A model generated the notes under the pieces. That model saw only the letters and a list, made by a program, of their open reading frames with translations. It did no database searches and was not told where the DNA came from. Below, piece by piece: positions 34-31,924 of a DNA stretch of 33,198 nt; the first letter of the stretch is position 1, and the number at the start of each line of letters is the position of its first letter. Both the position numbers and the translations under genes were made by a program. Origin of the DNA: Promethearchaeota archaeon (lineage in GTDB: Archaea > Asgardarchaeota > Lokiarchaeia > Sigyniarchaeales > SOKP01); NCBI GenBank assembly GCA_048940925.1, contig JBHLOC010000029.1, forward strand, positions 1 through 33,198, written 5' to 3'.

Positions 34-1398
34 ATGATTCCTTTATCGGATTTAAATTGGGATTTTCTTCATATTTTTTTCTTGATAATTATATTTTTTG
101 GGGGTTTTTTAACCACTTATTTTATACTCCCTTATATCATGAATTTAATGAAGAAAAAGGGTTATGTTGGTTATGATATTCATAAAAATGCCAGACCTGA
201 AATCCCAGAATCTGGAGGACTTAGTATAGTTATTGGATTCACGGTTACAGCAATACTTTTAATGGTCTTTTTTATTGATTTTATTAATGAAATTTTAATC
301 TTTCTTTTTACAGTTTTATTAACAGCAGCTATCGGTTTTTTTGATGATCGTAAAAAGCTAAAATCACGATATAAAATACTTTTATCTATTTTCTCTGGAG
401 TTCCGTTTTTCTTAGCTAACTATTTTGCCTTTGTAAATATCTCATCTCCAATTATTCCTATCCTTGATAGAACAAGATTAACTATTATATACCCCTTACT
501 AATTCCAATTATTATTGCCATTTCTACAAATACTGTCAATATGTTAGAGGGATATAATGGTGAAGGTTCAGGAACTTGTTTGATAGCTGCTTGTTTTCTT
601 CTTATTTGTAGTATAATTTGGGGTTCTACTGAAGGTATTTTATTTACTATTCCATTTATTGCAGTTTTAATTCCCTTTTTTGTATATAATAAATATCCGG
701 CTAAAATTTTCCCTGGAGATGTTGGAACATTAAGTATGGGTGCGATGTTAGCATGTATTATGTTATTTGGTTCACTTGAAGTTGCTACTTTTTGTGTACT
801 ACTAATACAGATATTCAATAGTTTTTATGTAATTTATTCAGTACGAGGTTTTTTAGAAAGTGATAAAATAAGAGAAACTAAAGAAGACATAATTTTACTA
901 GAAAATGATCAAATTAAAGCGTCTGATCAAAAGGATGCTGCCTTAACTCTGCCACGATTAATCCTTGCGAAAGGTCCCTTATCAGAACCAGATTTAGTTA
1001 ACAATTTCTTAGCAATTTCAACAATATGCGGTTTTTTATCAATTATATCAGTCCTATTTACGCAATTCACAAGAGGGGAGTTAGATTTCATAATCTTTCT
1101 TATCATATCCCTACTTATTGTAATACCTATCGGATTGTTATTATTAAAATTCCCTAGGATAAGAGGAATAATTGTTTTAATGGTGAGTCTATTAATAGGG
1201 ATAGTTATTTTTCTAATAATAATAGAATCTCTTATAATGCCAATACCTTTAGGAAGTATAAATATAGGAATAATTCAATTACCTCTAAATATAATTCTCA
1301 TATTTATCTTATCGATTGTAGGAATTTTAATATGGTATTTTGTCACAATTAAATATTTTTGGTATCAGATTAAAAATATGAAAATAAATAAGGTTTAA
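34..1398 (+). CDS. aglH: UDP-GlcNAc:dolichol-phosphate GlcNAc-1-phosphate transferase (AglH/Alg7/DPAGT1-like, MraY/GT4 family) with C-terminal membrane extension
   Basis: GYDIHK..RPEIPESGG, GFFDD, TNTVNMLEGYNG, NKYPAKIFPGDVG and the TLPRLILAKGPLSEPDL motif characteristic of the GPT branch; polytopic membrane protein. Confidence 0.85.
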   Translation: MIPLSDLNWDFLHIFFLIIIFFGGFLTTYFILPYIMNLMKKKGYVGYDIHKNARPEIPESGGLSIVIGFTVTAILLMVFFIDFINEILIFLFTVLLTAAIGFFDDRKKLKSRYKILLSIFSGVPFFLANYFAFVNISSPIIPILDRTRLTIIYPLLIPIIIAISTNTVNMLEGYNGEGSGTCLIAACFLLICSIIWGSTEGILFTIPFIAVLIPFFVYNKYPAKIFPGDVGTLSMGAMLACIMLFGSLEVATFCVLLIQIFNSFYVIYSVRGFLESDKIRETKEDIILLENDQIKASDQKDAALTLPRLILAKGPLSEPDLVNNFLAISTICGFLSIISVLFTQFTRGELDFIIFLIISLLIVIPIGLLLLKFPRIRGIIVLMVSLLIGIVIFLIIIESLIMPIPLGSINIGIIQLPLNIILIFILSIVGILIWYFVTIKYFWYQIKNMKINKV

Positions 1399-1427
1399 AA
1401 TTATTAATTAGACCCAAGGTATATCCA

Positions 1428-3971
1428 ATGAAAAACTATACAAGGTTCATTCTATTCATATTTTATCTTATGGGATCAATTGTGTTTTTTTACTTATTTA
1501 TAGTAATTTTCCTTAATATCAGTTTTATTGAACTTATAACAGATTGGAGTTTTATTATAACTGCTTTTCTTTATTTTTTAACAATTGAAGAATTTTATCA
1601 ATGGTTAAAAAATGGAAAAAGAAGTGAAATGAGTGATCTTGTCGCAATACTATTTTTCTTTTTTGTTATTTTTTTCTTTTCGAAAGATCTATTGACTTCA
1701 ATAATGGGAGCATTTTCAATTTACTTATGGATAGGCGTTTTTGAATTGAAAGAATATCCCGTTCTTAATAAAATTTTAATTATCTCATTAGTGACTTACA
1801 ATATTATCTTTATAGCTGGCATTTTCTCTTTTTATTTGGATGATCCCTTTTATATAAATACAAGTTTTGCCTTTTCATTCTGGATTATACTTATTATGGG
1901 ATTTCTATTGTTTGGAAGAAAGTATTTAGTTGTTTGGCGTTTTATGAGCCCTGAATACTTAACATTATTTCTCTATATTATCGCATGGCTGGCTGTTGTT
2001 TTTATTAATCAATTTACTCCATTTAATTTGATCACATCCAGACCTGTTGATTTCAAACATTTTCGATTAACTGATTTCTTTTTAAATATTTATTTTGCTT
2101 TAATTATAGTAAATTGGTTAATTTATTTCATTTCGGGTATAGTTTTAGATAGGTTACTTGGTATTAAAAAAGTTGAAAATAATAGCATAATAGATTTAGT
2201 AAATGAAGTTAAAAATAATATTGGTATAAAAAATAGAGTAAAAATTGGATTTGGAAAATATCCAATCTTGAATGCTATGGCATATGGATCTTTTTTTGAT
2301 AAAAGGATCGCTGTTATTGCCGATGATATTAATTCTATTCCAGAAGATGAGTTACGTGGAATTGTTGCTCATGAATTAGCTCATACTAAAGGAAACCATA
2401 CACTTATATTAACACTTATTACTTCACTTGATCTTATAATTAGAATGATAATTGGTATCCCTGCTACTTATTATGATTATACTTTTGGACACCCTCAAAT
2501 TCCGTTATTAATATTTATTCTCATAAATTTATTGATATACATTATTCTCTTTATTTTTGTGAGATTTCTGGAGGGAAAGGCAGATTTAAAAGCAAAAAAT
2601 TCAGGTTATGGGAAAGAACTTGTCAAGGCTTTATATAATTTGGAAAGCTTTTATGCAACAGGTCGAGAGATTGGACTCAATACAATGTTATTATGTGACG
2701 AAAAAATATCAAAAGATAATCAACTTTTAGATTACATGAAAACTGCTTCATATTTGTATCAATCAATGATAAAACCATCAAAAACGTCTCTTTTAAGCAA
2801 TTTTATAAATTCTCATCCACCAAGTTATTTTAGAATTGCAACAATTTTAAGTGATGAAATAAAACCAAGCAAAGAGGCAATTTTGCCATTTACTTGTTTA
2901 AAAAAATCAAAACAAAAGAAATATGCACATAAATTTGAAACATCAAGAGAATTATTCAAAAGGATAGCAAATACTAAATTCAAAGAACTTTTTCAAATTC
3001 ATGATATCTCATTATTAATGAGTGATCTTAGAAGAAATGAATTATATAAAGATGAACTTAATAGAGATTTCATTTTCATAAATAAAATTACAGATGAGAT
3101 TATTGTCGGTCATTTAGAGACTGTCCGCTTTATTGATGATATATGTGACAGCGATCAACTAATTATTAAGAATTTAAAAACTAATCAAAAACAATTTTTA
3201 GAATCATCATTATATACTCGCATTCGAATCGATTTGAATGAAATATACTTTTTACATAAAGATAATCCCTTAATTTTAACGGATATTAATTTGAAAACTG
3301 ATCAAAACAACAAGGCATTCTATGTCTTTATAGATAACGACAAAAATCAAATTCTGAAACCTATTTTAAAAACAAAATTACCAAATTCAATAGGATTGAT
3401 TAAAAATCTTAAAGGATCTACAATATTTTTAAAATTAAAAGGAAAATTACAGATATTAACATGTTCGAATCTAGCTGTCGCTAATAAGTATAATGAATAT
3501 GTGATATCTTTATCTAAATCAAGTGTTATTAAAAATCAAGATCAAGATGTATTGACATACACTCTCAAAGATTTAATTATTAGACCAAAAAATATCTTTC
3601 TTCCTGTTATGAAAGATAAAACTTATAGAAAATCTGAACTTGAAGTTATACAATGGTTAATTCAGAATCAAGTTCTAACTCATATTTATCTTAAAAAACC
3701 TGTAAATAATGTGGAATTAGGATTTGTTAAGACAGTTATTTTAAAATCCTCAGATACAAAAACTAAACCAAATGAAAAAAAAGAAATCAATACCATTATT
3801 GTAATTAATATTTTTGGAAATGAAATAAAGATATCATACGATATAATAGATTTAATTGCTTTTGAGTATAATAGCGTAATGATTCAAATCAAATCTGCAA
3901 CTAGCATTACCAGTCGTTTAGGTTATAAAATTTTGAAGAAATTTAAACCTGAAAGAATTATTATAACCTAA
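1428..3971 (+). CDS. M48-family (HtpX/Ste24-like) zinc metalloprotease with N-terminal multi-TM region and long C-terminal soluble region
   Basis: NAMAYG, ELRGIVAHELAH (HEXXH), EGKAD (third zinc ligand), SHPPSYFRI; 847 aa. Confidence 0.85.
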   Translation: MKNYTRFILFIFYLMGSIVFFYLFIVIFLNISFIELITDWSFIITAFLYFLTIEEFYQWLKNGKRSEMSDLVAILFFFFVIFFFSKDLLTSIMGAFSIYLWIGVFELKEYPVLNKILIISLVTYNIIFIAGIFSFYLDDPFYINTSFAFSFWIILIMGFLLFGRKYLVVWRFMSPEYLTLFLYIIAWLAVVFINQFTPFNLITSRPVDFKHFRLTDFFLNIYFALIIVNWLIYFISGIVLDRLLGIKKVENNSIIDLVNEVKNNIGIKNRVKIGFGKYPILNAMAYGSFFDKRIAVIADDINSIPEDELRGIVAHELAHTKGNHTLILTLITSLDLIIRMIIGIPATYYDYTFGHPQIPLLIFILINLLIYIILFIFVRFLEGKADLKAKNSGYGKELVKALYNLESFYATGREIGLNTMLLCDEKISKDNQLLDYMKTASYLYQSMIKPSKTSLLSNFINSHPPSYFRIATILSDEIKPSKEAILPFTCLKKSKQKKYAHKFETSRELFKRIANTKFKELFQIHDISLLMSDLRRNELYKDELNRDFIFINKITDEIIVGHLETVRFIDDICDSDQLIIKNLKTNQKQFLESSLYTRIRIDLNEIYFLHKDNPLILTDINLKTDQNNKAFYVFIDNDKNQILKPILKTKLPNSIGLIKNLKGSTIFLKLKGKLQILTCSNLAVANKYNEYVISLSKSSVIKNQDQDVLTYTLKDLIIRPKNIFLPVMKDKTYRKSELEVIQWLIQNQVLTHIYLKKPVNNVELGFVKTVILKSSDTKTKPNEKKEINTIIVINIFGNEIKISYDIIDLIAFEYNSVMIQIKSATSITSRLGYKILKKFKPERIIIT

Positions 3972-3988
3972 TAAAATTTAATATAAAT

Positions 3989-4924
3989 GTGCCTTTCAAA
4001 AAGTTAATTATGGTTGGGAAAATCAAAAGTCTAATAACTCTATTACGAGTACGCCAGTACTACAAAAATGGAATGATATTTATTGGAATTTTTTTTAGTG
4101 AACGCTTGTTTGATAATTCCCTTTATCTTTCACTTATAATTGGGTTTATACTTTTATGTTGTGCATCTTCTATTAACTACATAATTAATGACATAAAAGA
4201 TATTGAACGAGATAAGTTACATTCAGAAAAGTTAAAAAAGAGACCTCTTGCTTCTGGAGCTCTCTCTGTGCATTTTGCGGTATTAATGATAATTATCCTA
4301 GTAGCGATCATTACATTATCTCTCATATTTTTGATCCCACATCTAGGTTTTATAATAATGATAATTTTAATAATTGTTACTGGTCAACTTTATAACCATC
4401 TCTTCAAAAATTATGCTTTTATAGATATATTAATATTATCTACCGGTTATATATGGAGAACTTTGGCAGGTTGTATAGTAATTAAGGAATATGTCTCTGC
4501 TTGGTTACTTCTAGCTATTTTTGAAGTAGCTATATTTTTAAGTATTGCTAAAAGAAAAGGAGATTTAAAATTTCTAGGTGATGATATCGCTTTTGAACAT
4601 AAAAAAGTCTATGATCAATATTCTCTTAATTTGTTGGATCAATTTAACACAATTGTTGCTGGTTCATTGTTTATGACATACTCTCTTTATTTAATTTTAA
4701 AATTTAATTTATTTGAACCTGGAATTCCCTTATATGAATATATTGCAGTTGCAACCATCCCTCTTTCGTTATATATTCTCATGAGATATATGTATTTAAC
4801 TTCAGCTAAGCCTGAAATTGCCCGTAATCCAGAGAAAGCCTTTTTTGATAAAGGAATTGTGATTGCCGCTTTAGGACTTATTTTGATATTATTTTTCGCT
4901 TTTTATTTCGATGATGTTATCTAG
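3989..4924 (+). CDS. UbiA-family prenyltransferase, decaprenyl-phosphate phosphoribosyltransferase (DPPR synthase)-like; start may be ATG at 4010
   Basis: LLRVRQYYKNG, YIINDIKDIERD..H..KKRPLASG, LSIAKRKGDL, HKKVYDQYS motifs typical of the DPPR-synthase subfamily. Confidence 0.8.
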   Translation: MPFKKLIMVGKIKSLITLLRVRQYYKNGMIFIGIFFSERLFDNSLYLSLIIGFILLCCASSINYIINDIKDIERDKLHSEKLKKRPLASGALSVHFAVLMIIILVAIITLSLIFLIPHLGFIIMIILIIVTGQLYNHLFKNYAFIDILILSTGYIWRTLAGCIVIKEYVSAWLLLAIFEVAIFLSIAKRKGDLKFLGDDIAFEHKKVYDQYSLNLLDQFNTIVAGSLFMTYSLYLILKFNLFEPGIPLYEYIAVATIPLSLYILMRYMYLTSAKPEIARNPEKAFFDKGIVIAALGLILILFFAFYFDDVI

Positions 4925-5240: not shown

Positions 5241-7094
5241 ATGGAAATGGAAAAGAAAAACTTAGCTATTATAATTTTAGCAGTTGTACTTGCAGCCTCT
5301 GGAATCGGTAACGTCGTACTAGCTATAACCGGCGGATTAATTACCACACGTCAAGAAAAGAAAACAACCCTTGTTTATGGACTCGGTTCAAATCCTGCCG
5401 CGCTTGATCCTGTCGATACTTGGGATATCCCCTCACATCCATTACAACACCAAGTTACTCAGTCTTTAGTTGAATATGATATATCACACCACCCTAACTA
5501 CACTATAAAATTGGTGTTAGCCACAGACTATGTATGGCTATCTAACACATCAATTAAATTTAGGCTCAGAGATAATGTATTTTTCCACGATGGCACACCA
5601 ATGACAGCTGAATCAGTTTTATGGAATTTTGAAAGAGTAAAGTACTTTTTTAATGCATCTGGAACACTTGTAGCTAATGAAACTTCATGGCAAGGTTTCC
5701 CGGCATCTCTATTCTTTTCTTCTTCTAATGCCTCGCAATTCATATTCAAAAGTTTTGCAGCTAATGAAACAGACCTTTGGCCATCAGCAGATCCTATGCT
5801 TAAGCCTGAACCATGTATGACCTTTACCATCAATTTAAACTTTCCTTTTGGGCCTCTATTAGATCTACTCTGTTTTGGCGCCACTAATATTTTATCCCCT
5901 GCTTCCACACCTAGATATAAATATGTAGATTTAGCTACTGATACATTAGTAGGAACTGGTCCTTACAAATGGATTCATTTCAAGAGAGATCGTGAAGTAC
6001 GAATGGAGAGATTTGAAAGATACTGGGGTACTCCAGGGTATTTTGAAGTAGTTATCTTCAGAATTATAGAGGATGACACTGCAAGAATGACCGCAGGTCT
6101 AGCGGGACAATTTGACTATGTTGGTGGAGTTCCAAAATCGTATATTGATACGTTCAAGAATAGAGATGAATTTATCGTTAAGGATGTTGGTGAAGACTTA
6201 TGCTATTTCTATTTAGAAATTTATTGTGGTCCATATGATGCCGAAGGTGATTGGTTTTCAGGTCATGTGAAAGATTATCAATATCAGAAGAACCCTGCTT
6301 ACTTAAGAAGAGCTATTGCATTAGCAATTAACTATTCTTATATTATTGAAGAAATTCAATCGGGATATGCCGATGAGGGAACTCCTGCTGTACCCCGATC
6401 GATGCCTGGATACAATGCTTCAGTTGTACAAGCAAGTGACCCCCAATTTAAATGGGCAGAAAATGTTGTAAAAGCAAGAGAACTCTTGATTCAAAACTCT
6501 GCTGATATTAAAGCTCGTGGTGGTCTAGATGTTTCTGGATTTGATCCTGAAAAAGACTCTGATTGGAAAGGGAAAAATATACTTGGTAGAAAACTTGAGC
6601 TAAATAGACATTTTGGGAGTGTTACCAATCAACGATTAAATGAACTCATGGCACAAAATTTTGACCTGATCGGGATCCAAACTGAAGAAACAATCAGAGA
6701 ATGGGGCGATTACTTGGATACTGGTGAAAACAATCCATATCAAATGGATATTGGGTATGTTGGTTGGTGTCCAGATTATCTTAACCCCTTTAACATGATC
6801 GATCCATTATTCAACTTAAATTCTGGTTCATGCTTCTCTCGAATCAATGATACCAAATTAACTGCCTTGATGCAAGCTGGTGCGACTGAACTAAATGAAA
6901 CCAAGCAATTAGAAGATTGGATGGCTATTCAATCTTTGATCTACGATATTCAGCGACCGGTAAATCACGCAAGCCATGCTCATATATCTGGTTGGGTTTA
7001 TTTAGTACAACAAGTTCATAAGAAGGGCTTAATGGGAGTTCAATATAACGTTATGACTACTTTTGAAGTTTGGAAATGGTATTATGAAGAATAA
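5241..7094 (+). CDS. dppA: Peptide ABC transporter substrate-binding protein (DppA/OppA, family 5), N-terminal membrane anchor
   Basis: N-terminal hydrophobic anchor; LDP, FRLRDNVFFHDGTPMTAESV, VGTGPY, LRRAIALAIN, GWCPDY motifs. Confidence 0.9.
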   Translation: MEMEKKNLAIIILAVVLAASGIGNVVLAITGGLITTRQEKKTTLVYGLGSNPAALDPVDTWDIPSHPLQHQVTQSLVEYDISHHPNYTIKLVLATDYVWLSNTSIKFRLRDNVFFHDGTPMTAESVLWNFERVKYFFNASGTLVANETSWQGFPASLFFSSSNASQFIFKSFAANETDLWPSADPMLKPEPCMTFTINLNFPFGPLLDLLCFGATNILSPASTPRYKYVDLATDTLVGTGPYKWIHFKRDREVRMERFERYWGTPGYFEVVIFRIIEDDTARMTAGLAGQFDYVGGVPKSYIDTFKNRDEFIVKDVGEDLCYFYLEIYCGPYDAEGDWFSGHVKDYQYQKNPAYLRRAIALAINYSYIIEEIQSGYADEGTPAVPRSMPGYNASVVQASDPQFKWAENVVKARELLIQNSADIKARGGLDVSGFDPEKDSDWKGKNILGRKLELNRHFGSVTNQRLNELMAQNFDLIGIQTEETIREWGDYLDTGENNPYQMDIGYVGWCPDYLNPFNMIDPLFNLNSGSCFSRINDTKLTALMQAGATELNETKQLEDWMAIQSLIYDIQRPVNHASHAHISGWVYLVQQVHKKGLMGVQYNVMTTFEVWKWYYEE

Positions 7095-7125
7095 ATTAAC
7101 AAATAAATTATTTTAAAAAACTAAA

Positions 7126-7168
7126 TTTTTTTTTTTTTTTATAGTTCAGTATTTTACTTTTTTTTTTT
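7126..7168 (+). terminator. Oligo-T archaeal terminator after dppA
   Basis: T15 run at 7126-7140 and T11 run at 7158-7168 shortly after the stop at 7094. Confidence 0.65.
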
Positions 7169-7969
7169 CATTTTTTACAATATCAGAACCGACATTATTC
7201 TCTTTTTATTAAATTCTCCGTGTGATTTTTACTCACAAGTTAGAAATGTTTTTACTTAAATATCTTGATGTTGATAGTGTATTGAATCTCTTCTACTTAA
7301 TATTTTATTTCTGCCCTGCTTTAATAATGAACTGTCGATTTTACAAGAAATATAAAGAAATATATGATTTAATATATCTCAATTTGTGCTTAATCCAATT
7401 TAAGGTTTAAATTAAATATTCAATCAACCGACTTCATTTGCAAAACAATGATGTGCAAGAGGTCCCCAAGAACATGACATTCCTTTCGATTTTTATGTTA
7501 TCATAATTGTGTAAATCTTTAGGTGAGTAATCTTTAAAGAAATTTTACTGCTCCTCTATTAATCCTTATTAACATCTTTTAGAGAAAAACCTTGCTTTGC
7601 TTTTATTATCCGCTTTATATTTTGAAAAAACAGTAGATTGCTACACTATTACTTTATATCGTATATTACTTACTCATTTACTTTTTACATTTAATTATCA
7701 AGATATTTTGATATAGTCATTTAATATTGGAAGTTATCATTTTATCACGATAATTATAAAGAAGTACAAAATGAGTATCAAAAAATATTATATTACTTAA
7801 TGGAATTGATTTAGCATTTTTACTACTTTCATATGGTATATTAAATAAAATGAGTCTTAATAACTCAAATGTTTATAATACCAATAGAATAATTAATAAA
7901 TGATCAAATCTAAATATGTATAATTTTCATTAAATATAAAAAAAATTATGACTTCTTGAAGAAGAGAAA

Positions 7970-8413: not shown

Positions 8414-8423
8414 AAAAAAATTT

Positions 8424-8430: not shown

Positions 8431-8440
8431 AATAAGCTAT

Positions 8441-14461: not shown

Positions 14462-15256
14462 TTAATTATTTTTTCCTTTTAAAAGTTCATCAATATTTTT
14501 ATTATAATCAAGATTTAAACTAGGTTTTTCTAATTTAAAATGAATAAAAAATTCAATTGATCCTTTTTTTCCTAAATTAGGAGAATTAATGATCTGACAT
14601 GGATAAAATTGATTAGTTAAACTCCATTGAATTAAATTTTTAAGAATTTTATTTAAATGTTCATGGTCATTTATAATTCTAAATTTAGTTTCACCTTGAT
14701 ATTCTGTCTCAAAGAGTGGTTTTACCAATGCGATAATATCACCGTCGTCTTTTAGAAAATACTTTACATTTGGAAGGATTTCTTTTAATGAGGCGAATGT
14801 AATATCAATAGTACAAATATCAACATTTTCTTTTAGTTTTATTAAATTTCGAGCATCTATACCTAATTTAGGAATTACTTTTCCTTTTATTTTTTCGCAT
14901 TGTAGTGATGGATGTAGTAAGGTTGTAGCTTTATCTATAGCATATACTTTTTTAGCTCCATGTTTTAGTAAACAATCTGTGAATCCTCCAACTGACGCAC
15001 CTATATCAACACATACTTTATTTTCAACTGATATCGAAAAATTTTTTAAAGCTGCTTCTAATTTTAAACCTCCTCGACCAACAAATGGGAATTCTTTTTT
15101 TAGGTGAATTTCAAGAGTATTATCTACTCTTTTTCCTGGTTTTGCTATTGTTTTTTTATTAACAGATACATAACCCTTCCTTATTAGCCATTGTGCCTTT
15201 ACTCTGCTTTCTGCTAACCTTCTTTCTACTATTAGAATATCAATTCTTTCCTTCAT
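14462..15256 (-). CDS. tlyA: TlyA-family rRNA 2'-O-methyltransferase (S4 domain + FtsJ-like MTase)
   Basis: KERIDILIVERRLAESR..A (S4 domain), FVGRGGLKL, DIGASVGGFTDCLL, DITFASL, LVKPLFE. Confidence 0.9.
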   Translation of the reverse strand: MKERIDILIVERRLAESRVKAQWLIRKGYVSVNKKTIAKPGKRVDNTLEIHLKKEFPFVGRGGLKLEAALKNFSISVENKVCVDIGASVGGFTDCLLKHGAKKVYAIDKATTLLHPSLQCEKIKGKVIPKLGIDARNLIKLKENVDICTIDITFASLKEILPNVKYFLKDDGDIIALVKPLFETEYQGETKFRIINDHEHLNKILKNLIQWSLTNQFYPCQIINSPNLGKKGSIEFFIHFKLEKPSLNLDYNKNIDELLKGKNN

Positions 15257-16370
15257 CGATAATCTGTACTTTTATTAATAATTTTTCCTCGATTATTAAT
15301 GCTAATCTATAACTCAATCTCCCTATCTGGAATTTTATTGATGCTTTTCCTTCCCATTTTTTGTAAATTATTCTCAGAATAACTCCAATTATAATAAAAG
15401 CACCAGCAGCAAAAAACCAGATATTAAACACATTTAATTGGTCTAGAAAAAGAAAATATAATATATTATGAGCAAGATAAATAGTTAGAGAATAATACGA
15501 ATAATAAAATAATAATTTATAGCTCTTTTTCGTCTTAACAAACTTAAATATATCAAATATTAAAAGTATCGAAATTAAAACTATGTTAATGCCTAAAGAA
15601 TAAATTATCCATGAAAAACTTTCTCTTCTCAAGAATTTTGGATAACTAAATAAGATACCACAAATAATAAGAATTGTTCCAATTATCATTGCTGGAAATA
15701 AAAATTTATTTCTAAAAGCTTTTTGTCTATTAGTATCATCACTAATAAGAGATGTATCAAAAAGTGAATCTCCAATAACTGTGCCAAATAGAAAAAAGGG
15801 AAAAAAAGTCAATATGGGATCCTGGGAAATAGGAAAGTATAAAACATGAAATAAAAACCCATATATATTTGAATTACCATCAAATGGTATTAATAATTGA
15901 ATGATAATCTGATTAGTTATTAAAATTATTATTCCAACTATAATTCTAAAAAATTTTGATATTTTTAAAAGTGGCCATCCTATAAAAAGTGATACTGCTG
16001 AAGTTAAAAGTACAAACCAAGACCATATCATGGAAGGATCAAGTAACCTTATTGCAATTGTGGAATTATAAATTATGGCTACAAGAAATACAAAAAATGA
16101 TCTTAAAAAATAGGAATTTCGCATTATTCTATAGTTGTAATCTTCTGAATTAAGCACTCTAATTATTCTTTTTCTAACTGATAGACTTATACTTACTCCT
16201 GAAATAAATAAAAATCCAGAAGCACCAATAGGATCTAATATCATTATCGTAATTGAATGTAGCCAATGATATTCACTTTTTAACCACCAATCAATTAAGT
16301 GTGTTAAAATCATCCAAGACATGCAAAGTCCACGAAAAATATCTATACCCTTTAATCTTTGAAGCTCCAT
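15240..16370 (-). CDS. DUF1624 / heparan-alpha-glucosaminide N-acetyltransferase-like membrane acyltransferase
   Basis: RLKGIDIFRGLCMSWMILTH, FLFISGVS, SLTIYLAH; many TM helices. Confidence 0.75.
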   Translation of the reverse strand: MELQRLKGIDIFRGLCMSWMILTHLIDWWLKSEYHWLHSITIMILDPIGASGFLFISGVSISLSVRKRIIRVLNSEDYNYRIMRNSYFLRSFFVFLVAIIYNSTIAIRLLDPSMIWSWFVLLTSAVSLFIGWPLLKISKFFRIIVGIIILITNQIIIQLLIPFDGNSNIYGFLFHVLYFPISQDPILTFFPFFLFGTVIGDSLFDTSLISDDTNRQKAFRNKFLFPAMIIGTILIICGILFSYPKFLRRESFSWIIYSLGINIVLISILLIFDIFKFVKTKKSYKLLFYYSYYSLTIYLAHNILYFLFLDQLNVFNIWFFAAGAFIIIGVILRIIYKKWEGKASIKFQIGRLSYRLALIIEEKLLIKVQIIDEGKN

Positions 16371-24398: not shown

Positions 24399-24920
24399 TT
24401 ATTGACTTATATTGCCTGTTTTAATAGCTAAAATATACTGAAGAGCGATAAATGTGATGATTGTCATTAAAACTCCGATTACTAAAATATATATTGCCAT
24501 TTTCCTATTATACACATATTTTGATGCTTGGTATAATAATATAAACCCAGTTGAACATAAAAATATTAAAATTGAAGCTACAATACCCTCAATAATGAAA
24601 GATTCATGTATGTCTGGATAAATAAATATAGGATTTCCCTGGCTATCTGCTCCTAATGCTGGAGGTTTTCTAACTATAAAATAAGCTACTCCTGTTTGAA
24701 GCACAAACAAGATTATAAAAATTGCTATAATACTTAAAGAACGTGTTGGCATTGGAAGTGATAGCCTCGGAATTTTAAATTTTGGAAATTTTAGTTTAGG
24801 TTTTCTTAGCTTACTTCCAAATACCCAGGGAGTCTTTCTTTTAATTTTTTCTAAGACTGTTTCTGATCCAATTATTTCTTCTTTCTTAATCTCTTCCTTT
24901 GCTACTTGCTGTTTTTGCAT
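24399..24920 (-). CDS. Oligosaccharyltransferase subunit OSTC/DC2-like (OST3/OST6 family TM domain)
   Basis: KPKLKFP..RLSLPMP, then TM ending TGVAYFIVRKPPALG, loop, FIIEGIVASILIFLCSTGFILL and a third TM; same motif order as eukaryotic OSTC (GG..Y..I.EPP..G ... QY..EG..SS.LF..GG.GFI.L). Confidence 0.8.
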   Translation of the reverse strand: MQKQQVAKEEIKKEEIIGSETVLEKIKRKTPWVFGSKLRKPKLKFPKFKIPRLSLPMPTRSLSIIAIFIILFVLQTGVAYFIVRKPPALGADSQGNPIFIYPDIHESFIIEGIVASILIFLCSTGFILLYQASKYVYNRKMAIYILVIGVLMTIITFIALQYILAIKTGNISQ

Positions 24921-24992: not shown

Positions 24993-26501
24993 TCAATCTA
25001 ATTTTTGTAATAATCTTAATAAAAAGTTCCAAATTTTTTCTACAGATTTTACTAATAAACGTTCCTCGGGCGAATGAGCGCCCTCATTTCTAGGACCAAT
25101 TGAGATCATTTCCATATGAGGAAATTTTTTCTTTAAGATACCACATTCTAGTCCCGCATGAATTGCTTTCACAAGTAATTCATTATTGAATAATTGACGA
25201 TAAGCATCTTTAGTTAAAGTTAAAAGTTTTGAGTTAAAATTAGGTGTCCATCCAGGATAATCACTATCAATTATAGTCTCAACATTTAAACCGGTTAAAT
25301 TAATCAAAGAATTAGTTTTTTCCCAAATCACATTTTTGAAATATTCACTTAAGCTTCTTTGACTTAACTTTATTACAACCTTATCTTTTTCAGTCTTTAT
25401 AACCGCTAAATTTGATGATGAAAAAACAAGATCCCTTATTTTTGGGTGCATAGAAAGAGGACCATTCGGAATTGTATACAGGATATTAAGTAAGTTATTT
25501 TGAATTAGTTTTGTTAATACTTTCTTATTATCATAATTTGTTAATCTTTTAATTGATATATTGATGTCAGGGTCGATACCCTCAAAAAGAATTTTAATTT
25601 TCATAAGTTGATCTAAAATAAACTCTTTTACCTTCAAAAATTCATCTTCTCTTACAAAGAAAATAGCACTGGCTTCTCTAGGTATAGCATTAGTTCTATT
25701 ACCACCATTAATAGATGCAATATTCATCATAAAATTGTGGTTTAATTTCCAAAGTATTTGTCCTATAATTTTTAATGAATTTCCCCTTCCTATATGAATA
25801 TCTACCCCTGAATGCCCTCCAATTAAACCAGAAACAAATAATTTTATTGGAATTAGGTTTTCATTCTCATTAATATTAATAGTGTCTTTACTTATACGAA
25901 AAAAAGTTACTATCCCACCTGCACAACCTATCGTTACAGCATCTTCATCTTCAGCATCTAAATTTATTAGAAAGTCACCACTAATTAAATTATTATCGAT
26001 TTTAAAGGCACCACGTAAACCCATTTCCTCATCAACAGTAAATAATAAATCAAATCCAACTGATTCGTAATCAAGTTCTCCATCATGAATTTTTTTCATC
26101 AATGCTAATAAATAACAAATACCAACTCCATTATCTGCACCTAATGTAGTTCCTTCTGCTGTTACCCATTTTTCATTCTCAATTTCTATAATTTTTATTT
26201 TTAATGGATCGATAGAAAAATCGTGAATACTTTCTTCATTCTTTTCACACACCATATCCATGTGACATTGTAATACTATATTGTACTTTTTCATAGTTTT
26301 AGCTGGAATTCTCACTACTAGATTTCCTGCAATATCAACTTGAGTTTTAAATCCTAGCCTCTCTGCCTCTTCTTTTATGAAAGCTCTCACTTTTTCTTCA
26401 TGTTCAGAACACCGAGGGATTTTTGTAATTTGCTCAAAATATTCCCAAAATTCAAGAGGTTTGCTTAACTCTTTTAAATTTAACAAAAAAATCGCTTCCA
26501 A
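24993..26501 (-). CDS. pepD: Aminoacyl-histidine dipeptidase PepD (M20C); exact start uncertain
   Basis: IPRCSEHE, LQCHMDMVCEK, TTLGADNGVG, TVDEEMG, NLDAE, GGHSGVDIH, YPGW.PN, IHAGLECG, AHSPEE. Confidence 0.93.
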   Translation of the reverse strand: MEAIFLLNLKELSKPLEFWEYFEQITKIPRCSEHEEKVRAFIKEEAERLGFKTQVDIAGNLVVRIPAKTMKKYNIVLQCHMDMVCEKNEESIHDFSIDPLKIKIIEIENEKWVTAEGTTLGADNGVGICYLLALMKKIHDGELDYESVGFDLLFTVDEEMGLRGAFKIDNNLISGDFLINLDAEDEDAVTIGCAGGIVTFFRISKDTININENENLIPIKLFVSGLIGGHSGVDIHIGRGNSLKIIGQILWKLNHNFMMNIASINGGNRTNAIPREASAIFFVREDEFLKVKEFILDQLMKIKILFEGIDPDINISIKRLTNYDNKKVLTKLIQNNLLNILYTIPNGPLSMHPKIRDLVFSSSNLAVIKTEKDKVVIKLSQRSLSEYFKNVIWEKTNSLINLTGLNVETIIDSDYPGWTPNFNSKLLTLTKDAYRQLFNNELLVKAIHAGLECGILKKKFPHMEMISIGPRNEGAHSPEERLLVKSVEKIWNFLLRLLQKLD

Positions 26502-27716: not shown

Positions 27717-27759
27717 ATGATCTCTGATTTTCAATAAGAATTTATAGGTGAATATTGAT

Positions 27760-29048
27760 ATGGTAAATTTACAGAAAATATTTGAAGAAGTTGATAATTT
27801 GGATAAAGAAAGAATCATGAGCATTATAAGAACTCTCGTACACGTTAATATAGTCGTTCCGCCAGGTGATTCTTATAGAGAATATGTAGATGCATTATCA
27901 CCTTTTTTTAAGGATCTTAATTTTTGTTTAGAAGAAGTTATTGTTCCAGAAGAGTGTGTTAAACAGATTCCTTATCCTTTAGAAGGACCTCGGATTAATT
28001 TAATAGCAAATAAAGATTTTGGTAAAAAAAAATTCATATCTTTTTATGGTCATATGGATGTTGTACCGGCTCCAAATGAAGGAGCATAAAGATGGCGATT
28101 TCCTCCATTTGAAGCTACAATAATTAAGAGTGGGAAAATTTATGGACGTGGAGTTGGAGATATGAAGGGTGCAATGGCTTGTTTGATTTTAGCACTTCAG
28201 CGTATAGAAAAACTAAACCTTATGCCAAAATATAATGTTCAAGTATTGAACTGTACAGACGAGGAAATTGGATTTTATCCTGGAATTCGATACTTAGCAG
28301 AACATGGTTATATTAAAGGGACCCTTTTTTCGATGGATTATACGGTTGAGCCAATTATTTTAATGGGCTCAGCAGGTGATTTAGAAATAGAGATTCAAAC
28401 AATAGGTAGAAGCTCTCATTCCGGATTAAATGTATTAGGTATCAATGCTTTGGAGGAAATGATACCAATTTTGGTAGAACTTAAAAAATTGAAAGAAGAA
28501 GTGGAAACTCGTCAAAGTAAAGATATTCCTGGATTTCCAGACCCTCAATCTGGTGAAAAACGTAATTTAACTCCCCTTTTTAACTTGGATATAATAAAAT
28601 CAGGTGACAAATCAAATATTATCTCAGATATTTGTTCATTAATAATTAATAGACGAGTCATACCAGATGAAAATATTCAAGAAGTAAAACAAGAAATTAT
28701 AGATGCTGTAGAAAGAGGTAAAGCGAAAAGTAATGCATTAGATGTAAAAATTTCCTTTAAATATCCCTATCCTCCTTTAAAAGTAGATATTAACAGTTCA
28801 GAAGTACAGAGGATTCAAAAGTGATTAAACTTGTACATATAATTCCAGAGGAAAAAATTCGAAAGACTGGAATGAGTATTACATTTGATGCTGGTTTTGT
28901 AGCTCAAATCTTAAAAACTCAAGAGGTTATTCTTCGTGGTGTTGCCACCGGGGGATCCAATACTCATGGAGTAAACGAAACAATTAGATTAAAAGATATA
29001 AAAAAATTAATTAAAGAAATAATAGTTTTTTTATGCGCTGATTTATAA
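27760..29048 (+). pseudogene. Disrupted M20/ArgE/DapE-family metallohydrolase (in-frame TAA at 28087-28089 and a frameshift at 28817-28824)
   Basis: FYGHMDVVPA-(stop)-RWRFPPF...IYGRGVGDMKG continues in the same frame; DEE, GRSSHSG; C-terminal FDAG...NTHGVNE lies in the -1 frame; SD AGGTGA precedes ATG 27760. Confidence 0.85.
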
Positions 29049-29110
29049 ATTTAACACAAAATTATAAAAAAAAATAAAAAAAAGAAAATAGATTTACCGC
29101 TTCTTATAAG

Positions 29111-29308
29111 TTAGTTTTCGATGATTTCTATGGCTTCCTCAGAACATTGTGTCTCACATGCTCTGCAACCTACACAATCCTCTCTGTTTTCTTCAATTAC
29201 ATTGACTTTTCCTCCCTCAGGCTCGCCAAAACATTCAGAAGGGCATACTTCATAGCATGTACCACACCCTGAACATGCATCCATATCTATTTTTATCTCA
29301 AAGGACAT
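29111..29308 (-). CDS. 2[4Fe-4S] ferredoxin
   Basis: CSGCGTCYEVCP and CVGCRACETQC; AGGAG SD upstream; T-rich tract downstream on the minus strand (A-runs at about 29065-29088). Confidence 0.93.
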   Translation of the reverse strand: MSFEIKIDMDACSGCGTCYEVCPSECFGEPEGGKVNVIEENREDCVGCRACETQCSEEAIEIIEN

Positions 29309-29726
29309 TATTATTAAACTCCTTTCTGTTCTTACATTCTAATTTTTGATTTTTTTAATAAATTCTATCTTTGATAATAGTATAAAAAATATAAATTTCG
29401 TTTTTATTATCAAAAATTAATGTTGGAGAATTATTTTTAGATTTTTGACATTCGATTTTTTATAATGAGAATATAATTGAAATATCTTTTATCAATGAAA
29501 ATCTAGTTAAAAATAAGTAGTAAATGAGGATTTCAGTTCTAATTACTTTTAAACAATAAAACTTTTACTTTATATTAAGAATTTTTCTTTTAATTCATAC
29601 TCAATATCAAGAAAGTATAGAATGGTTTTAATTTAATAATTTTTTAAAAATCATATTAAACATAATAATTGTTTAAATTTTATATAATATAACAAAAATG
29701 ATAATTATTTGAGGAGTTGAGTTACA

Positions 29727-30053
29727 ATAGCAAAAGATAAGATTATTGGTGCCATTGTAATGATCATTGGTATTATAATTGCCATTGTTTATACTATGGG
29801 CTCAATTGTCGATCTTGCTTTCAATACTATTTGGAATAATCCAGGATGGGATGATTGGACTAGGATCTTTGGTATTAATTGGTTAGACTGGAGATTGTTC
29901 GTGGTTCTACCTATGTGGTTAATTGTTATTTTAATTTCAATTATCGCAATCTGGATTGGTTATTCCATGCTGACGACCCCTGCACCAGTTCCCTTAGAGG
30001 AGCTCGAGGAAGAATTGGCTGCAGAAGAGGAATCTGAAGAATCTGGAGAATAA
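29727..30053 (+). CDS. Small 2-TM membrane protein, DPM2-like (dolichol-phosphate-mannose synthase regulatory subunit-like); probable ATA start at 29727, first ATG at 29760
   Basis: In-frame upstream extension (I/M)AKDKIIGAIV after SD GAGGAG (29711-29716); DKIIG...IVYT and VLP...IWIGYSMLTT resemble DPM2 DQxxG...YYT and AIP...FISYVMLKT; acidic tail. Confidence 0.6.
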   Translation: MAKDKIIGAIVMIIGIIIAIVYTMGSIVDLAFNTIWNNPGWDDWTRIFGINWLDWRLFVVLPMWLIVILISIIAIWIGYSMLTTPAPVPLEELEEELAAEEESEESGE

Positions 30054-30261: not shown

Positions 30262-31236
30262 ATGATGATGTTAGAAGAAACTGATTATGTTCTAATTATT
30301 GGTTCAAGTAATATGGATTTAAACATCTATTCTAAACGCTTTCCAAATCCGGGTGAAACAGTTACAGGTGGAACCTTTAAACAATTTTTAGGTGGTAAAG
30401 GAGCTAATCAATCAGTTGCTTCTGTTAGATCTGGTGTGAAAACGGTATTTATTGGAAAGATTGGGATTGATATTTTTGGTGATCAGATGATTTCTCAATT
30501 AACTAAAGAAGGAATTAACATGAATCATGTTATTAGAGATCCTGAAGAGATGAGTGGTGTTGCATTTATTTTGATCGATGAAAATGGTGAAAATATGATT
30601 AGTGTAGCTCCTGGAGCAAATATTAAGTTATCTCCTCAAGATATCCGATCAAAGACAAGTATCATTGAAAATGCCAAATGTATAGTTGTGCAAATGGAAA
30701 TTCCAATGGATACAATAAAAGAAATCTTAAATATATCTACAGAATTAGATAACATTAAAATCTTAAATCCTGCACCTTTAAAACCATTACCAAAGCAGCT
30801 TTTGGAAAAAGTAGATATTATAATACCGAATAAAGGAGAGCTTTTTAAAATGCATTCTCTTTTAGGATTTGAAGATTTAGATGTAGAAGAAAATGAAAAC
30901 ATACTACAAGTTTCAAAAGATATTGCGAGTTTGGGAATAAAATATGTAATAACTACATTAGGTGCGAGAGGATGTTTCATCTATTCAAGGGGAGAAAATA
31001 AGGCAATCGAAGTTGCTGCTCCTAATGTAAAAGCTGTAGATACCGTGGGTGCCGGAGATTGTTTTATTGGAGTTTTGGCAAGTAGATTATGTAAAGGGGA
31101 AAAGGTTCTTAATGCTGTTAAGTATGCTTCTGTTGCAGCCTCTATTGCAGTGACTAGAAAAGGAGCACAGGTTTCAATGCCTTTTTCAAATGAAGTTGAA
31201 GCTAAATTAAAAGAACTTGCCATAGAAATAGAATAG
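30262..31236 (+). CDS. rbsK: Ribokinase (PfkB family)
   Basis: GSSNMDL, P.PGETV, GGKGANQ, GENMISVAPGAN, QMEIP, LNPAP, DTVGAGDCF. Confidence 0.92.
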   Translation: MMMLEETDYVLIIGSSNMDLNIYSKRFPNPGETVTGGTFKQFLGGKGANQSVASVRSGVKTVFIGKIGIDIFGDQMISQLTKEGINMNHVIRDPEEMSGVAFILIDENGENMISVAPGANIKLSPQDIRSKTSIIENAKCIVVQMEIPMDTIKEILNISTELDNIKILNPAPLKPLPKQLLEKVDIIIPNKGELFKMHSLLGFEDLDVEENENILQVSKDIASLGIKYVITTLGARGCFIYSRGENKAIEVAAPNVKAVDTVGAGDCFIGVLASRLCKGEKVLNAVKYASVAASIAVTRKGAQVSMPFSNEVEAKLKELAIEIE

Positions 31237-31249
31237 AAGGGATTTTGAA

Positions 31250-31924
31250 TTGAAAGAAGAAAAAATTCTCGCTAGAAGAAGTACGACATTAAGAAAAAAT
31301 AACTCTAAAGATTTAATTATTAATTTAAATCAAATAAACTTCAAAAATATTTTTCTAATTAATGGAACACAGTTTCTAACTAAGAATATATCAAAATCCC
31401 ATTTAATCGTTAAACCTCATGATTTTTATATGATATTTAATCATGAAGAAAAACCAATCACAGTTACATATAATCAAGATATTTCAAAACACCCAATTAT
31501 CTACGATCCATTCAAATATGAATACTCAGAAAGAATTGATTTAACACCTGAAATGTTTTTTGAGAGATATGATATACCAAAAAACTATGTTAGCACACTT
31601 CCCAAATGGTATAGTTTTAAATTTTCATATTCTAATTATAATCTGATTTTTTTACGTCCTGAATTCGGACTTTCAATACAAATTCATAAAGATAGAAATG
31701 AATTCTGGGAAATTTTAGAAGGTGAACCGATCTTAATTATTGGAAATAAAGTACATTATTTTGTACAAAGCGGAACCAAGTTGCAAAATCCAAGAAATTC
31801 ATATCATTCTATAATCAATCCTAATAAGCAGAAAAACAAATTTGTTATAATAAAAGAGAAGTGGACTGGAAAATTCGACGAAAATGATATAGAAAGAGTT
31901 TTTAATCCCAATCATTATGAATAA
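31250..31924 (+). CDS. Cupin protein resembling the type II mannose-6-phosphate isomerase C-terminal domain, with unknown N-terminal region (TTG start)
   Basis: LSIQIHKDRNEFWEILEG, YHSIIN, GKFDENDIERV (cf. LSLQxHxHRxEHW, HRLxN, GEDDIVR). Confidence 0.7.
   Translation: MKEEKILARRSTTLRKNNSKDLIINLNQINFKNIFLINGTQFLTKNISKSHLIVKPHDFYMIFNHEEKPITVTYNQDISKHPIIYDPFKYEYSERIDLTPEMFFERYDIPKNYVSTLPKWYSFKFSYSNYNLIFLRPEFGLSIQIHKDRNEFWEILEGEPILIIGNKVHYFVQSGTKLQNPRNSYHSIINPNKQKNKFVIIKEKWTGKFDENDIERVFNPNHYE

Follow-up and report, generated by a model that had tools for sequence, protein, structure and literature searches.

The stretch of DNA analysed here (the window, 33,198 nucleotides of a Lokiarchaeial genome) encodes, to judge from sequence, separate relatives of a number of proteins that take part in glycosylation in the eukaryotic ER. 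A first-pass annotation had described them as a dispersed N-glycosylation toolkit of an Asgard-type archaeon. All the genes it listed are present where it placed them or within a few bases, and its by-eye family calls are right, including that of an OSTC-like protein (as opposed to a thioredoxin-bearing OST3/6) and, at superfamily level, that of a DPM2-like one. The Asgard origin stands too: proteins 75-90% identical to those of the window are labelled Promethearchaeota or Lokiarchaeota.

The only tight unit in the window consists of three plus-strand genes, aglH-M48-UbiA, of which aglH is the first. Its 454-aa product (34..1398) is a polyprenyl-phosphate GlcNAc-1-P transferase of the AglH/Alg7 (DPAGT1-like) type, assigned by Pfam search to PF00953 (Glycos_transf_4, E 1e-30, 107 bits) and by alignment to PDB chains, among which human DPAGT1 (6bw6/5lev) is the best match at 1.4e-13, with MraY behind at 5e-9. 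The alignment to 6bw6 takes in the DD, TNxxNxLxGxNG and GD motifs, which pair as FDD/ADD, TNTVNMLEGYNG/TNAINILAGING and PGD/VGD. With PNPT fold motifs and a closer likeness to DPAGT1 than to MraY, the protein is predicted to be of the GPT class; work cited in PMC8993221 reports that yeast alg7 is complemented by AglH from Sulfolobus and from Methanococcus. The middle gene (1428..3971), separated from its neighbours by gaps of 29 and 17 nt, encodes an M48-family membrane metalloprotease-like protein of 847 aa (PF01435 at 6.4e-16). The last (3989..4924) encodes a UbiA-family polyprenyl-phosphate transferase (PF01040 at 7.9e-22) whose best NCBIfam model is decaprenyl-phosphate phosphoribosyltransferase (DPPR synthase), NF008977. 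The score of 171.8 bits lies below the cut-off of 234, is far above those of DGGGP-, UbiA- or heme O-type models, and comes from a nearly full-length match (residues 12-305 against positions 2-288 of 297). Among the GTDB families surveyed, numbered f1, f2 and so on, the three-gene order is kept in f1 and the M48-UbiA pair in f2, and a second copy of the unit lies on another contig of the same genome (C89). Families f1, f2 and f7 have orthologues of the UbiA gene; homologues 34-37% identical adjoin a DPM2/PIG-P-like gene in f22.

What would such a unit do? Most likely the DPAGT1-like enzyme would transfer HexNAc-1-P onto dolichyl phosphate and so start the lipid-linked glycan, while the DPPR-synthase-like UbiA would make another sugar linked to polyprenyl phosphate, perhaps a pentose phosphate derived from PRPP. 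The N-glycan of P. syntrophicum, to date the single one from an Asgard archaeon to have been characterised, carries a pentose at position 2 (PMC11284389), and the idea of a lipid-linked pentose thereby gains some plausibility. It may be that the operon provides a lipid-linked pentose made from PRPP, and that this pentose ends up as the second residue of the Lokiarchaeial N-glycan. With a predicted DPPR-synthase-like enzyme encoded in one operon with AglH, there is a concrete candidate source for a pentose that is otherwise unexplained.

A putative substrate is encoded nearby. The surface protein of the first-pass annotation (5241..7094, plus strand) is an extracellular solute-binding protein of family 5 (oligopeptide-type), anchored at its N-terminus (SBP_bac_5, PF00496 at 2.8e-49), and its gene is the first in a set for a Dpp/Opp ABC transporter extending as far as 13132. 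It has exactly 10 N-x-S/T sequons, or 1.6 per 100 aa, the most of any window protein checked. In P. syntrophicum the principal N-glycoprotein is of this class (PMC11284389), and the protein is likely an N-glycoprotein and a substrate of the machinery considered here. Further along, the minus strand encodes an Acyltransferase-3/HGSNAT-type multi-pass membrane acyltransferase (15240..16370), with eight hydrophobic segments and matches to PF01757 (Acyl_transf_3, 43.9 bits, cut-off 31) and PF07786 (HGSNAT_cat, 38 bits, cut-off 22).

The minus-strand gene at 24399..24920 encodes a 173-aa OSTC/DC2-like small OST subunit with a basic N-terminal tail, three TM helices and no thioredoxin domain. It matches PF04756 (OST3_OST6) at 46.2 bits (cut-off 27) in its TM part only, at model positions 171-290 of 294; positions 1-170 are unmatched, and residues 1-55 of the protein are basic and modelled at low confidence. 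Human OSTC is its only significant match in the PDB (2.2e-7 with the single sequence, 2.1e-12 with a family profile), and neither query retrieves an Ost3, TUSC3 or MagT1 chain at E<=10. Its hydrophobic segments begin with residues 53, 103 and 139, and an AF2 model of modest quality (pLDDT 63) places helices at 59-82, 104-134 and 139-168. When that model is compared by Foldseek, OSTC chains rank 1-4, with non-significant E values, and the yeast OST chain 8age_H, which we take to be Ost3, ranks 23, followed at rank 38 by 6s7t_H. The PDB and fold searches together place this small, three-TM, thioredoxin-less protein apparently nearer to OSTC than to the TM domain of OST3/6. A thioredoxin-bearing OST3/6 identity was rejected, since the protein is only 173 aa long and has no luminal CxxC domain. 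In naming, Asgard papers and Pfam PF04756 use OST3/OST6, and the P. syntrophicum protein is called Ost3/6 (PMC11284389).

The OSTC-like gene was found in 167 of 201 Asgard genomes (about 175 matches), and among the 150 matches listed nearly all lie in open frames of 140-220 aa; by sequence and size the Asgard "OST3/6" is OSTC-like across the phylum. The first-pass annotation had further proposed a multi-subunit, eukaryote-like OST, and this holds in part: the genome contains a match to STT3/AglB (in a 1314-aa open frame), one to ribophorin I (626 aa) and a weak Ost5-like ORF, while searches of it for OST48 and Alg14 found neither. Most likely the three-TM subunit would bind AglB/STT3, together with the ribophorin I encoded elsewhere. 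In the OST-A complex of metazoans and plants, OSTC/DC2 is the subunit specific to STT3A, and it ties the OST to the translocon. Lokiarchaeia and most Asgard archaea may run an OST whose small subunit is of this translocon-docking type and not of the OST3/6 type. If so, an OST-A-like, co-translational architecture would be ancestral, and the identity of the Asgard "OST3/6" bears on whether co-translational glycosylation is.

The second small membrane protein (29727..30053, plus strand; about 100 aa) is a two-TM hairpin of the DPM2/PIG-P family, assigned by family alignments, Pfam searches of family members and AF2 modelling. At 29727, the position of the start codon (ATG) conserved among relatives, the sequence reads ATA; the next ATG is at 29760. 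The protein has a conserved WIGYSMLTTPAPVPLEELEEEL tail. The AF2 model (pLDDT 78.6) has helices at 2-34 and 55-83 and a tail helix, a hairpin with both ends on the same side, as in the two-TM hairpins, of about 80-130 aa, of the DPM2/PIG-P superfamily. The only recurrent fusion partner is a C-terminal soluble HHH_5+DUF4332 module, not a glycosyltransferase, and such fusions in relatives would fit a cytoplasmic C-terminus. Its 586 homologues include Lokiarchaeial ones 75-85% identical and some with a precomputed PF08510 label; the gene was found in 149 of 201 Asgard genomes.

Profile searches give a graded picture. The first-pass annotation had let its OSTC-like and DPM2-like calls hang on HMM or structural matches. 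The OSTC-like protein has a Pfam match above cut-off and a significant PDB sequence match; the small protein's own sequence stays below threshold, with 22.4 bits against a cut-off of 39.3 for PIG-P (PF08510) and no DPM2 (PF07297) match at E<=0.1 in it or anywhere in the genome, and it is members of the family that match both models. Among 56 diverse members, 34 match PIG-P (best 2.3e-10) and 22 match DPM2 (best 1.7e-8) at E<=0.01; among 20 Lokiarchaeial members, 17 match PIG-P and none DPM2. Part of the Pfam signal appears to be generic hairpin composition, because a holin two-TM model matches 31 of the 56.

The surroundings of the small gene were surveyed at 57 loci from 21 GTDB families. At least one neighbour of a sugar-activation type is present at 34 of the loci, in 10 of the families. 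A PGM/PMM gene lies within 3 kb at 16 loci of five families (co-directional with a SIS gene in f3 and f21), GlmS/SIS genes are nearby in four families, an NTP-transferase-hexapeptide gene in f12, and a DPPR-like UbiA gene in f22. The gene is thus repeatedly found beside hexose-phosphate or nucleotide-sugar genes. In the window it is followed by a ribokinase (30262..31236, plus strand; TIGR02152 at 311 bits, above the equivalog cut-off of 299.65) and a type II PMI-like cupin (31250..31924, plus strand), which matches the PMI C-terminal domain PF01050 at 27.9 bits (cut-off 23.6; residues 132-217) and TIGR01479 weakly, and has no PDB sequence match. The cupin is a conserved neighbour in f1 and f2, and the ribokinase stands between the two genes in f1 only. 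Ribosomal protein S19 (32151..32684, plus strand; PF00203 at 3.3e-30), with which a ribosomal protein cluster starts, is no more than 3 kb from the small gene in seven GTDB families and marks the conserved block that holds it.

Which enzyme might such a protein serve? Two GT2 glycosyltransferases of the same genome (289 and 278 aa) have the Dol-P-Man synthase of Pyrococcus furiosus (5mlz) as best match, at 1.6e-27 and 1.4e-21, and align to its catalytic and interface-helix part (residues 19/25-235/244 of 374). Both are without a strong TM segment, and their nearest NCBIfam models are AglJ, PpgS and ArnC-like. Such TM-less, DPM1-like enzymes could need a separate membrane subunit. Their genes are on contig C87 and the small gene on contig C3, with no adjacency seen, and co-occurrence is not strict: all 21 genomes of f5 have DPM1-like GT2s and none of them the small protein. 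For the Dol-P-Man synthase system suggested at first pass, the two TM-less GT2s are candidate partners; against it, DPM3 was looked for in the genome and not found, and the small protein of Lokiarchaeia scores as PIG-P, not as DPM2. Most likely the protein would act as a membrane-embedded helper of a TM-less polyprenyl-phosphate glycosyltransferase, and the one archaeal forerunner of DPM2 and PIG-P may have the role of membrane subunit in a split synthase of the human kind, one that makes polyprenyl-phosphate sugars and has the TM-less DPM1-like GT2s as its core.

Could the partner instead be a transferase that uses UDP-GlcNAc? PIG-P carries a cytoplasmic C-terminal extension, which DPM2 is not known to have. 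The Lokiarchaeial members resemble PIG-P in this respect as well as in their profile matches, and the small gene of other Asgard families has as neighbours genes of the UDP-GlcNAc pathway: GlmS-like ones, a phosphohexomutase (GlmM/PMM-type) and a GlmU-like NTP-transferase-hexapeptide gene. A PIG-P-like protein partnering a GlcNAc-lipid synthase or an AglH-type enzyme, and not a Dol-P-Man synthase, is a possibility to be taken seriously, though on balance an unlikely one: a PIG-A domain and a PIG-C/GPI2 homologue were both sought in the genome and not found, mannose activation would account just as well for the phosphohexomutase and the PMI-like cupin, and the two TM-less GT2s are at hand as partners. 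DPM2 and PIGP go back to a pre-LECA duplication, and in the published tree of PF07297 their Asgard relatives are sister to both paralogues (PMC12872463); for this reason neither function can be read from the archaeal family. The same tree weighs against a more radical doubt, that the protein is an unrelated archaeal hairpin drawn to these models by hydrophobic composition. The sub-threshold PIG-P score and the holin matches would suit such an origin, as would weak PIG-P matches in 4 of 14 control genomes (E<=0.1), a strongly conserved acidic tail with no counterpart in DPM2, and the lack of any PDB sequence or fold match to the protein. We consider it very improbable, given the strength reached by HMM-linked family members in both models, the sugar-activation context of the gene, and an independent language-model search in which archaeal ESM Atlas clusters named DPM2 or carrying PF07297 are among the nearest neighbours.

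A further matter is whether the genes are together for a reason. The OSTC-like, DPM2/PIG-P-like, UbiA, aglH and cupin genes might form a loose glycosylation island kept close by selection, for instance for co-regulation or so that their products are assembled co-translationally at a single place in the membrane. Where the OSTC-like and DPM2/PIG-P-like genes, both single-copy, share a contig in f1, they are mostly 4-10 kb from each other (20 kb in one exception, G040). The distance is 2.5 kb in G089, a genome of f2, and 4 kb in G076, of f8; the UbiA and cupin genes of G089 fall together with these two within about 11 kb. By our estimate, two given single-copy genes would lie within 5 kb by chance in about 0.2-0.3% of cases in a genome of 3-5 Mb, and the proximity in f2 and f8 is more recurrence than pure chance predicts. 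Yet in f3, f7 and f13 the two genes are more than 200 kb apart, and their phyletic patterns are independent, with the OSTC-like gene in 18 and the small protein in none of the 21 f5 genomes, and f17 and f22 showing the reverse. The genes of this supposed island lie on differing strands without operon-like gaps, among genes for RadA paralogues, NAD kinase, an MptE-like protein, GcvH and M20 peptidases (in f8, a topoisomerase); those between them in the window, rRNA and tRNA methyltransferases included, are unrelated to glycosylation. Asgard agl genes have also been published as dispersed (PMC11284389). Selection for such an island therefore seems improbable. The first-pass caveat that co-location may be incidental proves largely correct, with unrelated genes intervening and conservation of synteny at the level of the order, outside which linkage is gone. 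We favour, with a probability of roughly 0.7, a reading of the window as an ordinary, syntenically conserved stretch of Lokiarchaeial chromosome that holds several independently transcribed parts of an archaeal dolichol-linked N-glycosylation machinery, whose proximity comes mainly from inherited order-level synteny and not from membership of one functional unit.

Asgard homologues of proteins for glycosylation in the ER serve as evidence on the origin of the eukaryotic endomembrane and secretory system, and a eukaryote-like OST and dolichol toolkit in these archaea is already in the literature (PMC10307638, PMC11284389, PMC12872463, PMC12338589), including homologues of all OST subunits (PMC10307638). 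Most of the interpretation given here is thus published: the OST subunits, the sister of DPM2 and PIGP, the dispersed agl genes, and the glycosylated solute-binding protein with its pentose-bearing N-glycan. Little is added to that catalogue, and three points are sharpened. In the papers searched we did not find it stated that throughout the phylum the Asgard "OST3/6" resembles OSTC in sequence and size, that the DPM2/PIG-P-like gene repeatedly adjoins hexose-phosphate or nucleotide-sugar genes, or that a DPPR-like UbiA could be the source of the pentose in the Lokiarchaeial N-glycan. The archaeal DPM2/PIG-P ancestor is among the most conserved small membrane proteins of Lokiarchaeia, and its sugar-activation neighbours give a handle on its function. 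Whereas families, phyletic distribution and gene neighbourhoods are observed, the protein contacts and enzyme activities in this scheme are all ones that we infer; that an OSTC-type ancestral OST, a DPM2/PIG-P ancestor in a split synthase and an operon-supplied pentose should all hold jointly is a speculative proposition with rather low odds.

Set against known systems, the parts show both kinship and divergence. DPAGT1/Alg7 and archaeal AglH have in common PF00953, the Mg-binding DD and the GPT-type NxxNxLxGxNG motif. The archaeal enzyme differs from DPAGT1 in its length of 454 aa and in some six additional hydrophobic segments (C-terminal TM helices) past residue 320, and the alignment ends at residue 268, leaving the C-terminal nucleotide-sugar loop region unaligned; DPAGT1 is a GlcNAc-1-P transferase, and the linking sugar of P. 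syntrophicum is a modified HexNAc. For the UbiA protein, mycobacterial DPPR synthase (UbiA, Rv3806c; NF008977) is the best curated family, and a polyprenyl-phosphate acceptor would be common to the two, but the archaeal protein scores below the equivalog cut-off, would be expected to use a dolichol-type lipid, and uses PRPP by prediction only. Its partner gene in the operon encodes an M48 protease-like protein and not a DprE1/DprE2-type epimerase.

OSTC/DC2 (PDB 6s7o chain H, 6ftg) and the archaeal OSTC-like protein are alike in their size of about 150-175 aa, in having three TM helices and in being thioredoxin-less, and the profile alignment (2.1e-12) spans residues 13-142 of the 149-aa human protein; the archaeal one has a longer basic N-terminal tail (about 55 aa) and a host without an ER. 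With OST3/OST6 (TUSC3/MagT1) it shares the C-terminal TM part of PF04756, presumably as a member of the same superfamily, but it has three TM helices instead of four and no luminal thioredoxin domain. The DPM2/PIG-P-like protein differs from both eukaryotic paralogues in a nearly invariant WIG(W/Y)(T/S)MxTTPPPxPxEE motif with an acidic tail, in a sequence below both Pfam cut-offs, and in a genome with no detected DPM3, PIG-A or PIG-C, while the small N-in/C-in helical hairpin is common to all three. The P. furiosus synthase (5mlz) is fused, with a four-helix TM domain that the GT2s of the present genome do not have; apart from DPM3, which was not found in the genome, the arrangement resembles the human-type (type II) split Dol-P-Man synthase, in that the GT2s, like human DPM1, are free of that TM domain and a separate two-TM protein is encoded elsewhere in the genome.

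The window forms the start of contig C3 in a 4.8 Mb assembly of 90 contigs (completeness 100%, contamination 8.4%) and has a G+C content of about 28%. Its Asgard-type origin holds, because public records label proteins 75-90% identical to those encoded here as Promethearchaeota or Lokiarchaeota. Pfam and NCBIfam scans of 30 ORFs recover every gene that the first-pass annotation had assembled into a dispersed ER-like dolichol and N-glycosylation toolkit. The map opens with a tight trio of an aglH-like GT4 gene, an M48 protease-like gene and a UbiA gene (34-4924), followed by a Dpp/Opp-type ABC transporter (5241-13132) with DUF362 next to it, a TlyA-like methyltransferase and an Acyl_transf_3 membrane acyltransferase. 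It also holds two RadA/Rad51 paralogues, Trm1, FtsJ, an MptE-like protein, GcvH, NAD kinase, a small PF04756 protein (24399-24920, minus strand), M20 peptidases and a small two-TM protein (29727-30053, plus strand), as well as a ribokinase, a PMI-type cupin, ribosomal protein S19 and then another ribosomal-protein ORF. The GT4 protein is nearer to human DPAGT1 (1.4e-13) than to MraY (5e-9), with its DD, TNxxNxLxGxNG and GD motifs aligned with those of DPAGT1, and the ribokinase and PMI-type cupin score above curated cut-offs. The presumed surface protein with 10 sequons is a solute-binding protein of family 5 in which N-x-S/T occurs exactly 10 times; between its gene and the first Dpp/Opp permease gene lies a 147-aa ORF (7970-8413) that has three hydrophobic segments and matches nothing in Pfam.

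The PF04756 protein (173 aa) matches the OST3_OST6 model (46 bits, cut-off 27) in its TM part only, at positions 171-290 of 294. In a search of all PDB chains, human OSTC/DC2 is the sole match of the single sequence (2.2e-7), and a profile of 22 Lokiarchaeial homologues likewise retrieves OSTC alone (2.1e-12, residues 13-142 of 149). Structures of yeast Ost3 and human TUSC3/MagT1 are deposited in the PDB, and these proteins are absent from the sequence searches even at E<=10. The AF2 model has three TM helices (pLDDT 63 overall, 70-86 in the membrane part); OSTC chains from structures of human OST-A take the top four places in Foldseek, at non-significant values (probability about 0.8, E 0.14-0.39), and the search also returns the yeast OST chain 8age_H and the OST-B chain 6s7t_H. 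The family is present in 167 of the 201 sampled Asgard genomes and in 79/85 of high-quality ones. Among the matches listed, nearly all come from open frames 140-220 aa long; a short form without thioredoxin is therefore the norm in Asgard. The first call of an OSTC/DC2-like subunit was right. Published work names the Asgard protein "Ost3/Ost6" or "Ost3 (Tusc3)" (PMC11284389, PMC11417166, PMC10307638); in the literature searched, Asgard, OST3 and thioredoxin were never found treated together, and "OSTC" was found with "Asgard" only where it abbreviates the complex as a whole. "OSTC/DC2-like" is the slightly more precise name, refining a known protein and not adding a new one. This OSTC-type identity of the Asgard "OST3/6" is one of the points that retain value.

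Could the two-TM protein be named as closely? By itself it matches PIG-P below threshold (22.4 bits vs a cut-off of 39.3) and has no DPM2 Pfam match. It has 586 homologues, the Lokiarchaeial ones 75-85% identical with an MAKDK N-terminus, and the family signature consists of two TM helices, the motif WIG(W/Y)(T/S)MxTTPPPxPxEE and an acidic tail. An HMM scan of 1.8 billion cluster representatives places the family in 86 clusters only, about 100 aa long in all but a few, with some truncated or fused forms. Among 56 diverse members, 34 match PIG-P (best 2.3e-10) and 22 match DPM2 (best 1.7e-8); part of this signal is generic, because 31 also match a two-TM holin model. Neighbours in a language-model search include archaeal clusters that bear either the name "Dolichol phosphate-mannose biosynthesis regulatory protein" or PF07297. 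Foldseek of the model against the PDB gave no match, a helical hairpin being too simple for this result to weigh, and the family profile gave only chance-level matches to PDB sequences. For the PF07297 tree, Kay et al. list a duplication before LECA that yielded DPM2 and PIGP and has an Asgard sister (PMC12872463), and Tobiasson et al. assign the GPI-GnT complex Asgard ancestry (PMC12338589). We conclude that the protein belongs to an archaeal family co-orthologous to DPM2 and PIG-P, as already published in outline. The earlier DPM2-like label holds at this level.

Several features of the locus deserve record. The conserved ATG of the small gene, present in four relatives of the same genus and family, is ATA here (29727), with a GAGGAG motif 10 nt upstream; the next in-frame ATG is codon 12 (29760), and a start there loses 11 conserved residues. 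A near-cognate start, an error in sequencing or a genuine mutation could each account for the ATA. Directly upstream is a short Cys-rich ORF (29105-29309, minus strand) resembling, by eye, a small 4Fe-4S ferredoxin. Before it, an M20 peptidase is apparently spread over three consecutive same-strand ORFs (27748-29047; 113, 220 and about 75 aa), with M20 and M20_dimer matches in the middle one only; it adjoins an intact 502-aa M20 gene (24993-26501) and may be a frameshifted gene or a pseudogene. A Rosetta-stone search turned up no glycosyltransferase fused to the small protein. The only recurrent fusion is to HHH_5 (PF14520) and DUF4332 (PF14229), which lie C-terminally in about 20 metagenomic relatives of 238-315 aa (P0330-P0347, P0203).

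The surroundings of the small gene were compared across 60 loci fetched from 21 GTDB families of the phylum, 57 of which have a callable ORF of the family. Ribosomal protein S19 lies within 3 kb in 7 families. A PGM/PMM-type phosphohexomutase does so at 16 loci in 5 families (median distance 185 bp) and runs in the same direction as a SIS-domain gene in families f3 and f21. GlmS/SIS genes are near in 4 families, a GlmU-like NTP-transferase-hexapeptide gene in f12, a PMI-like cupin in f1 and f2, and in f22 a UbiA 34-37% identical to that of the window; the ribokinase, 25 kb from UbiA, is a neighbour in f1 only. On these grounds a ribokinase-PRPP-UbiA route was set aside. At least one such sugar gene accompanies 34/57 loci in 10 of the 21 families, counts that amount to no statistical test because the loci are related. 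The recurrence of different sugar-activation genes across lineages lends contextual support to a role in glycosyl transfer, without telling a DPM2-like role with mannose from a PIG-P-like one with GlcNAc. These surroundings of the DPM2/PIG-P ancestor remain of interest in their own right.

The first-pass annotation had allowed that the co-location of the toolkit might be incidental, and this is largely the case. The sole operon-like unit among its genes is aglH-M48-UbiA (34-1398, 1428-3971 and 3989-4924; gaps of 29 and 17 nt), which is kept in f1, as M48-UbiA in f2, and as UbiA alone in f7 and f22. Where one contig carries both the OSTC-like and the small gene, most f1 genomes place them 4-10 kb from each other (20 kb in G040); the distance is 2.5 kb in one f2 genome (G089) and 4 kb in one of f8 (G076), but exceeds 200 kb in f3, f7 and f13. 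Unrelated genes stand between them (RadA, NAD kinase, MptE-like, peptidases or topoisomerase), and the two families differ in phyletic pattern. We attribute the proximity to inheritance of gene order and leave a slight chance that selection has kept it. The assembly holds a second complete trio (C89:3053-8037), 64-67% identical in protein, which may stem from an ancient duplication into paralogues or, given the 8.4% contamination, belong to a second organism.

The proposed lipid-linked pentose donor is made somewhat more plausible by P. syntrophicum, whose chief N-glycoprotein is a family-5 solute-binding protein with 12 sequons, 8 of them used, and whose three N-glycans all read 304.13 (probably a HexNAc derivative)-Pen-Hex-... 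(PMC11284389). We infer that a HexNAc-1-P transferase and a DPPR-synthase-like enzyme in one operon may be a candidate source of polyprenyl-linked pentose. The top curated family of UbiA is decaprenyl-phosphate phosphoribosyltransferase, matched over nearly its full length, but its 171.8 bits fall below the equivalog cut-off of 234, and a second sugar added cytoplasmically could come from a donor that is not lipid-linked. The operon keeps its value as a candidate pentose source.

Partners expected of such a toolkit are encoded elsewhere in the genome in part: matches to STT3/AglB (1314-aa frame, C76:16392 region) and ribophorin I (626-aa frame, C63:85533 region) are present, as are DPM1-like GT2s. 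The searches found no DPM3, Alg14, OST48, PIG-C or PIGA domain, the OST48 and PIG-C absences being weak because no control genome gave any match; a GPI-GnT-like complex was considered and set aside, as the genome yielded neither a PIGA domain nor PIG-C. A 71-aa ORF (C40:241479-241667) matches Ost5/TMEM258 weakly (24.4 bits vs a cut-off of 27.4), in line with the Ost5 homologues reported in most Asgard classes (PMC10307638). This ORF is distinct from the two-TM protein, for which an Ost5 identity was rejected (PF05251 matched by 0/56 family members). The first-pass observation is confirmed; its interpretation has partial support, and most of it was known already.

Six GT2 genes are present in the genome. 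A 257-aa product on C24, of a size suggesting DPM1, was rejected as a member of the arsenosugar-type family TIGR04283. A locus on C24 (34219-37828) joins four adjacent genes, for a radical SAM/SPASM protein, an ArsM-like methyltransferase and TIGR04282- and TIGR04283-family proteins, the last two belonging to arsenosugar-biosynthesis glycosyltransferase families (NCBIfam) with scores below cut-off, the second only just; the group may form a Lokiarchaeial cluster of arsenosugar type. DPM1-like GT2s are nearly ubiquitous (174/201 genomes), including 21/21 of family f5, where the OSTC-like protein occurs in 18/21 and the small protein in 0/21, so their co-occurrence with the small protein says little. 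The f5 absence could be a true loss or divergence beyond the profile. The best match of two GT2s on C87 (289 and 278 aa; C87:67557-68426 and C87:45983-46819) is the P. furiosus Dol-P-Man synthase 5mlz (1.6e-27 and 1.4e-21), aligned over the catalytic and interface-helix part only, and neither has a strong TM segment. Human DPM1 depends on DPM2 and DPM3. Its TM-less catalytic architecture is shared by the two C87 GT2s, which would fit a split synthase formed with the small protein.
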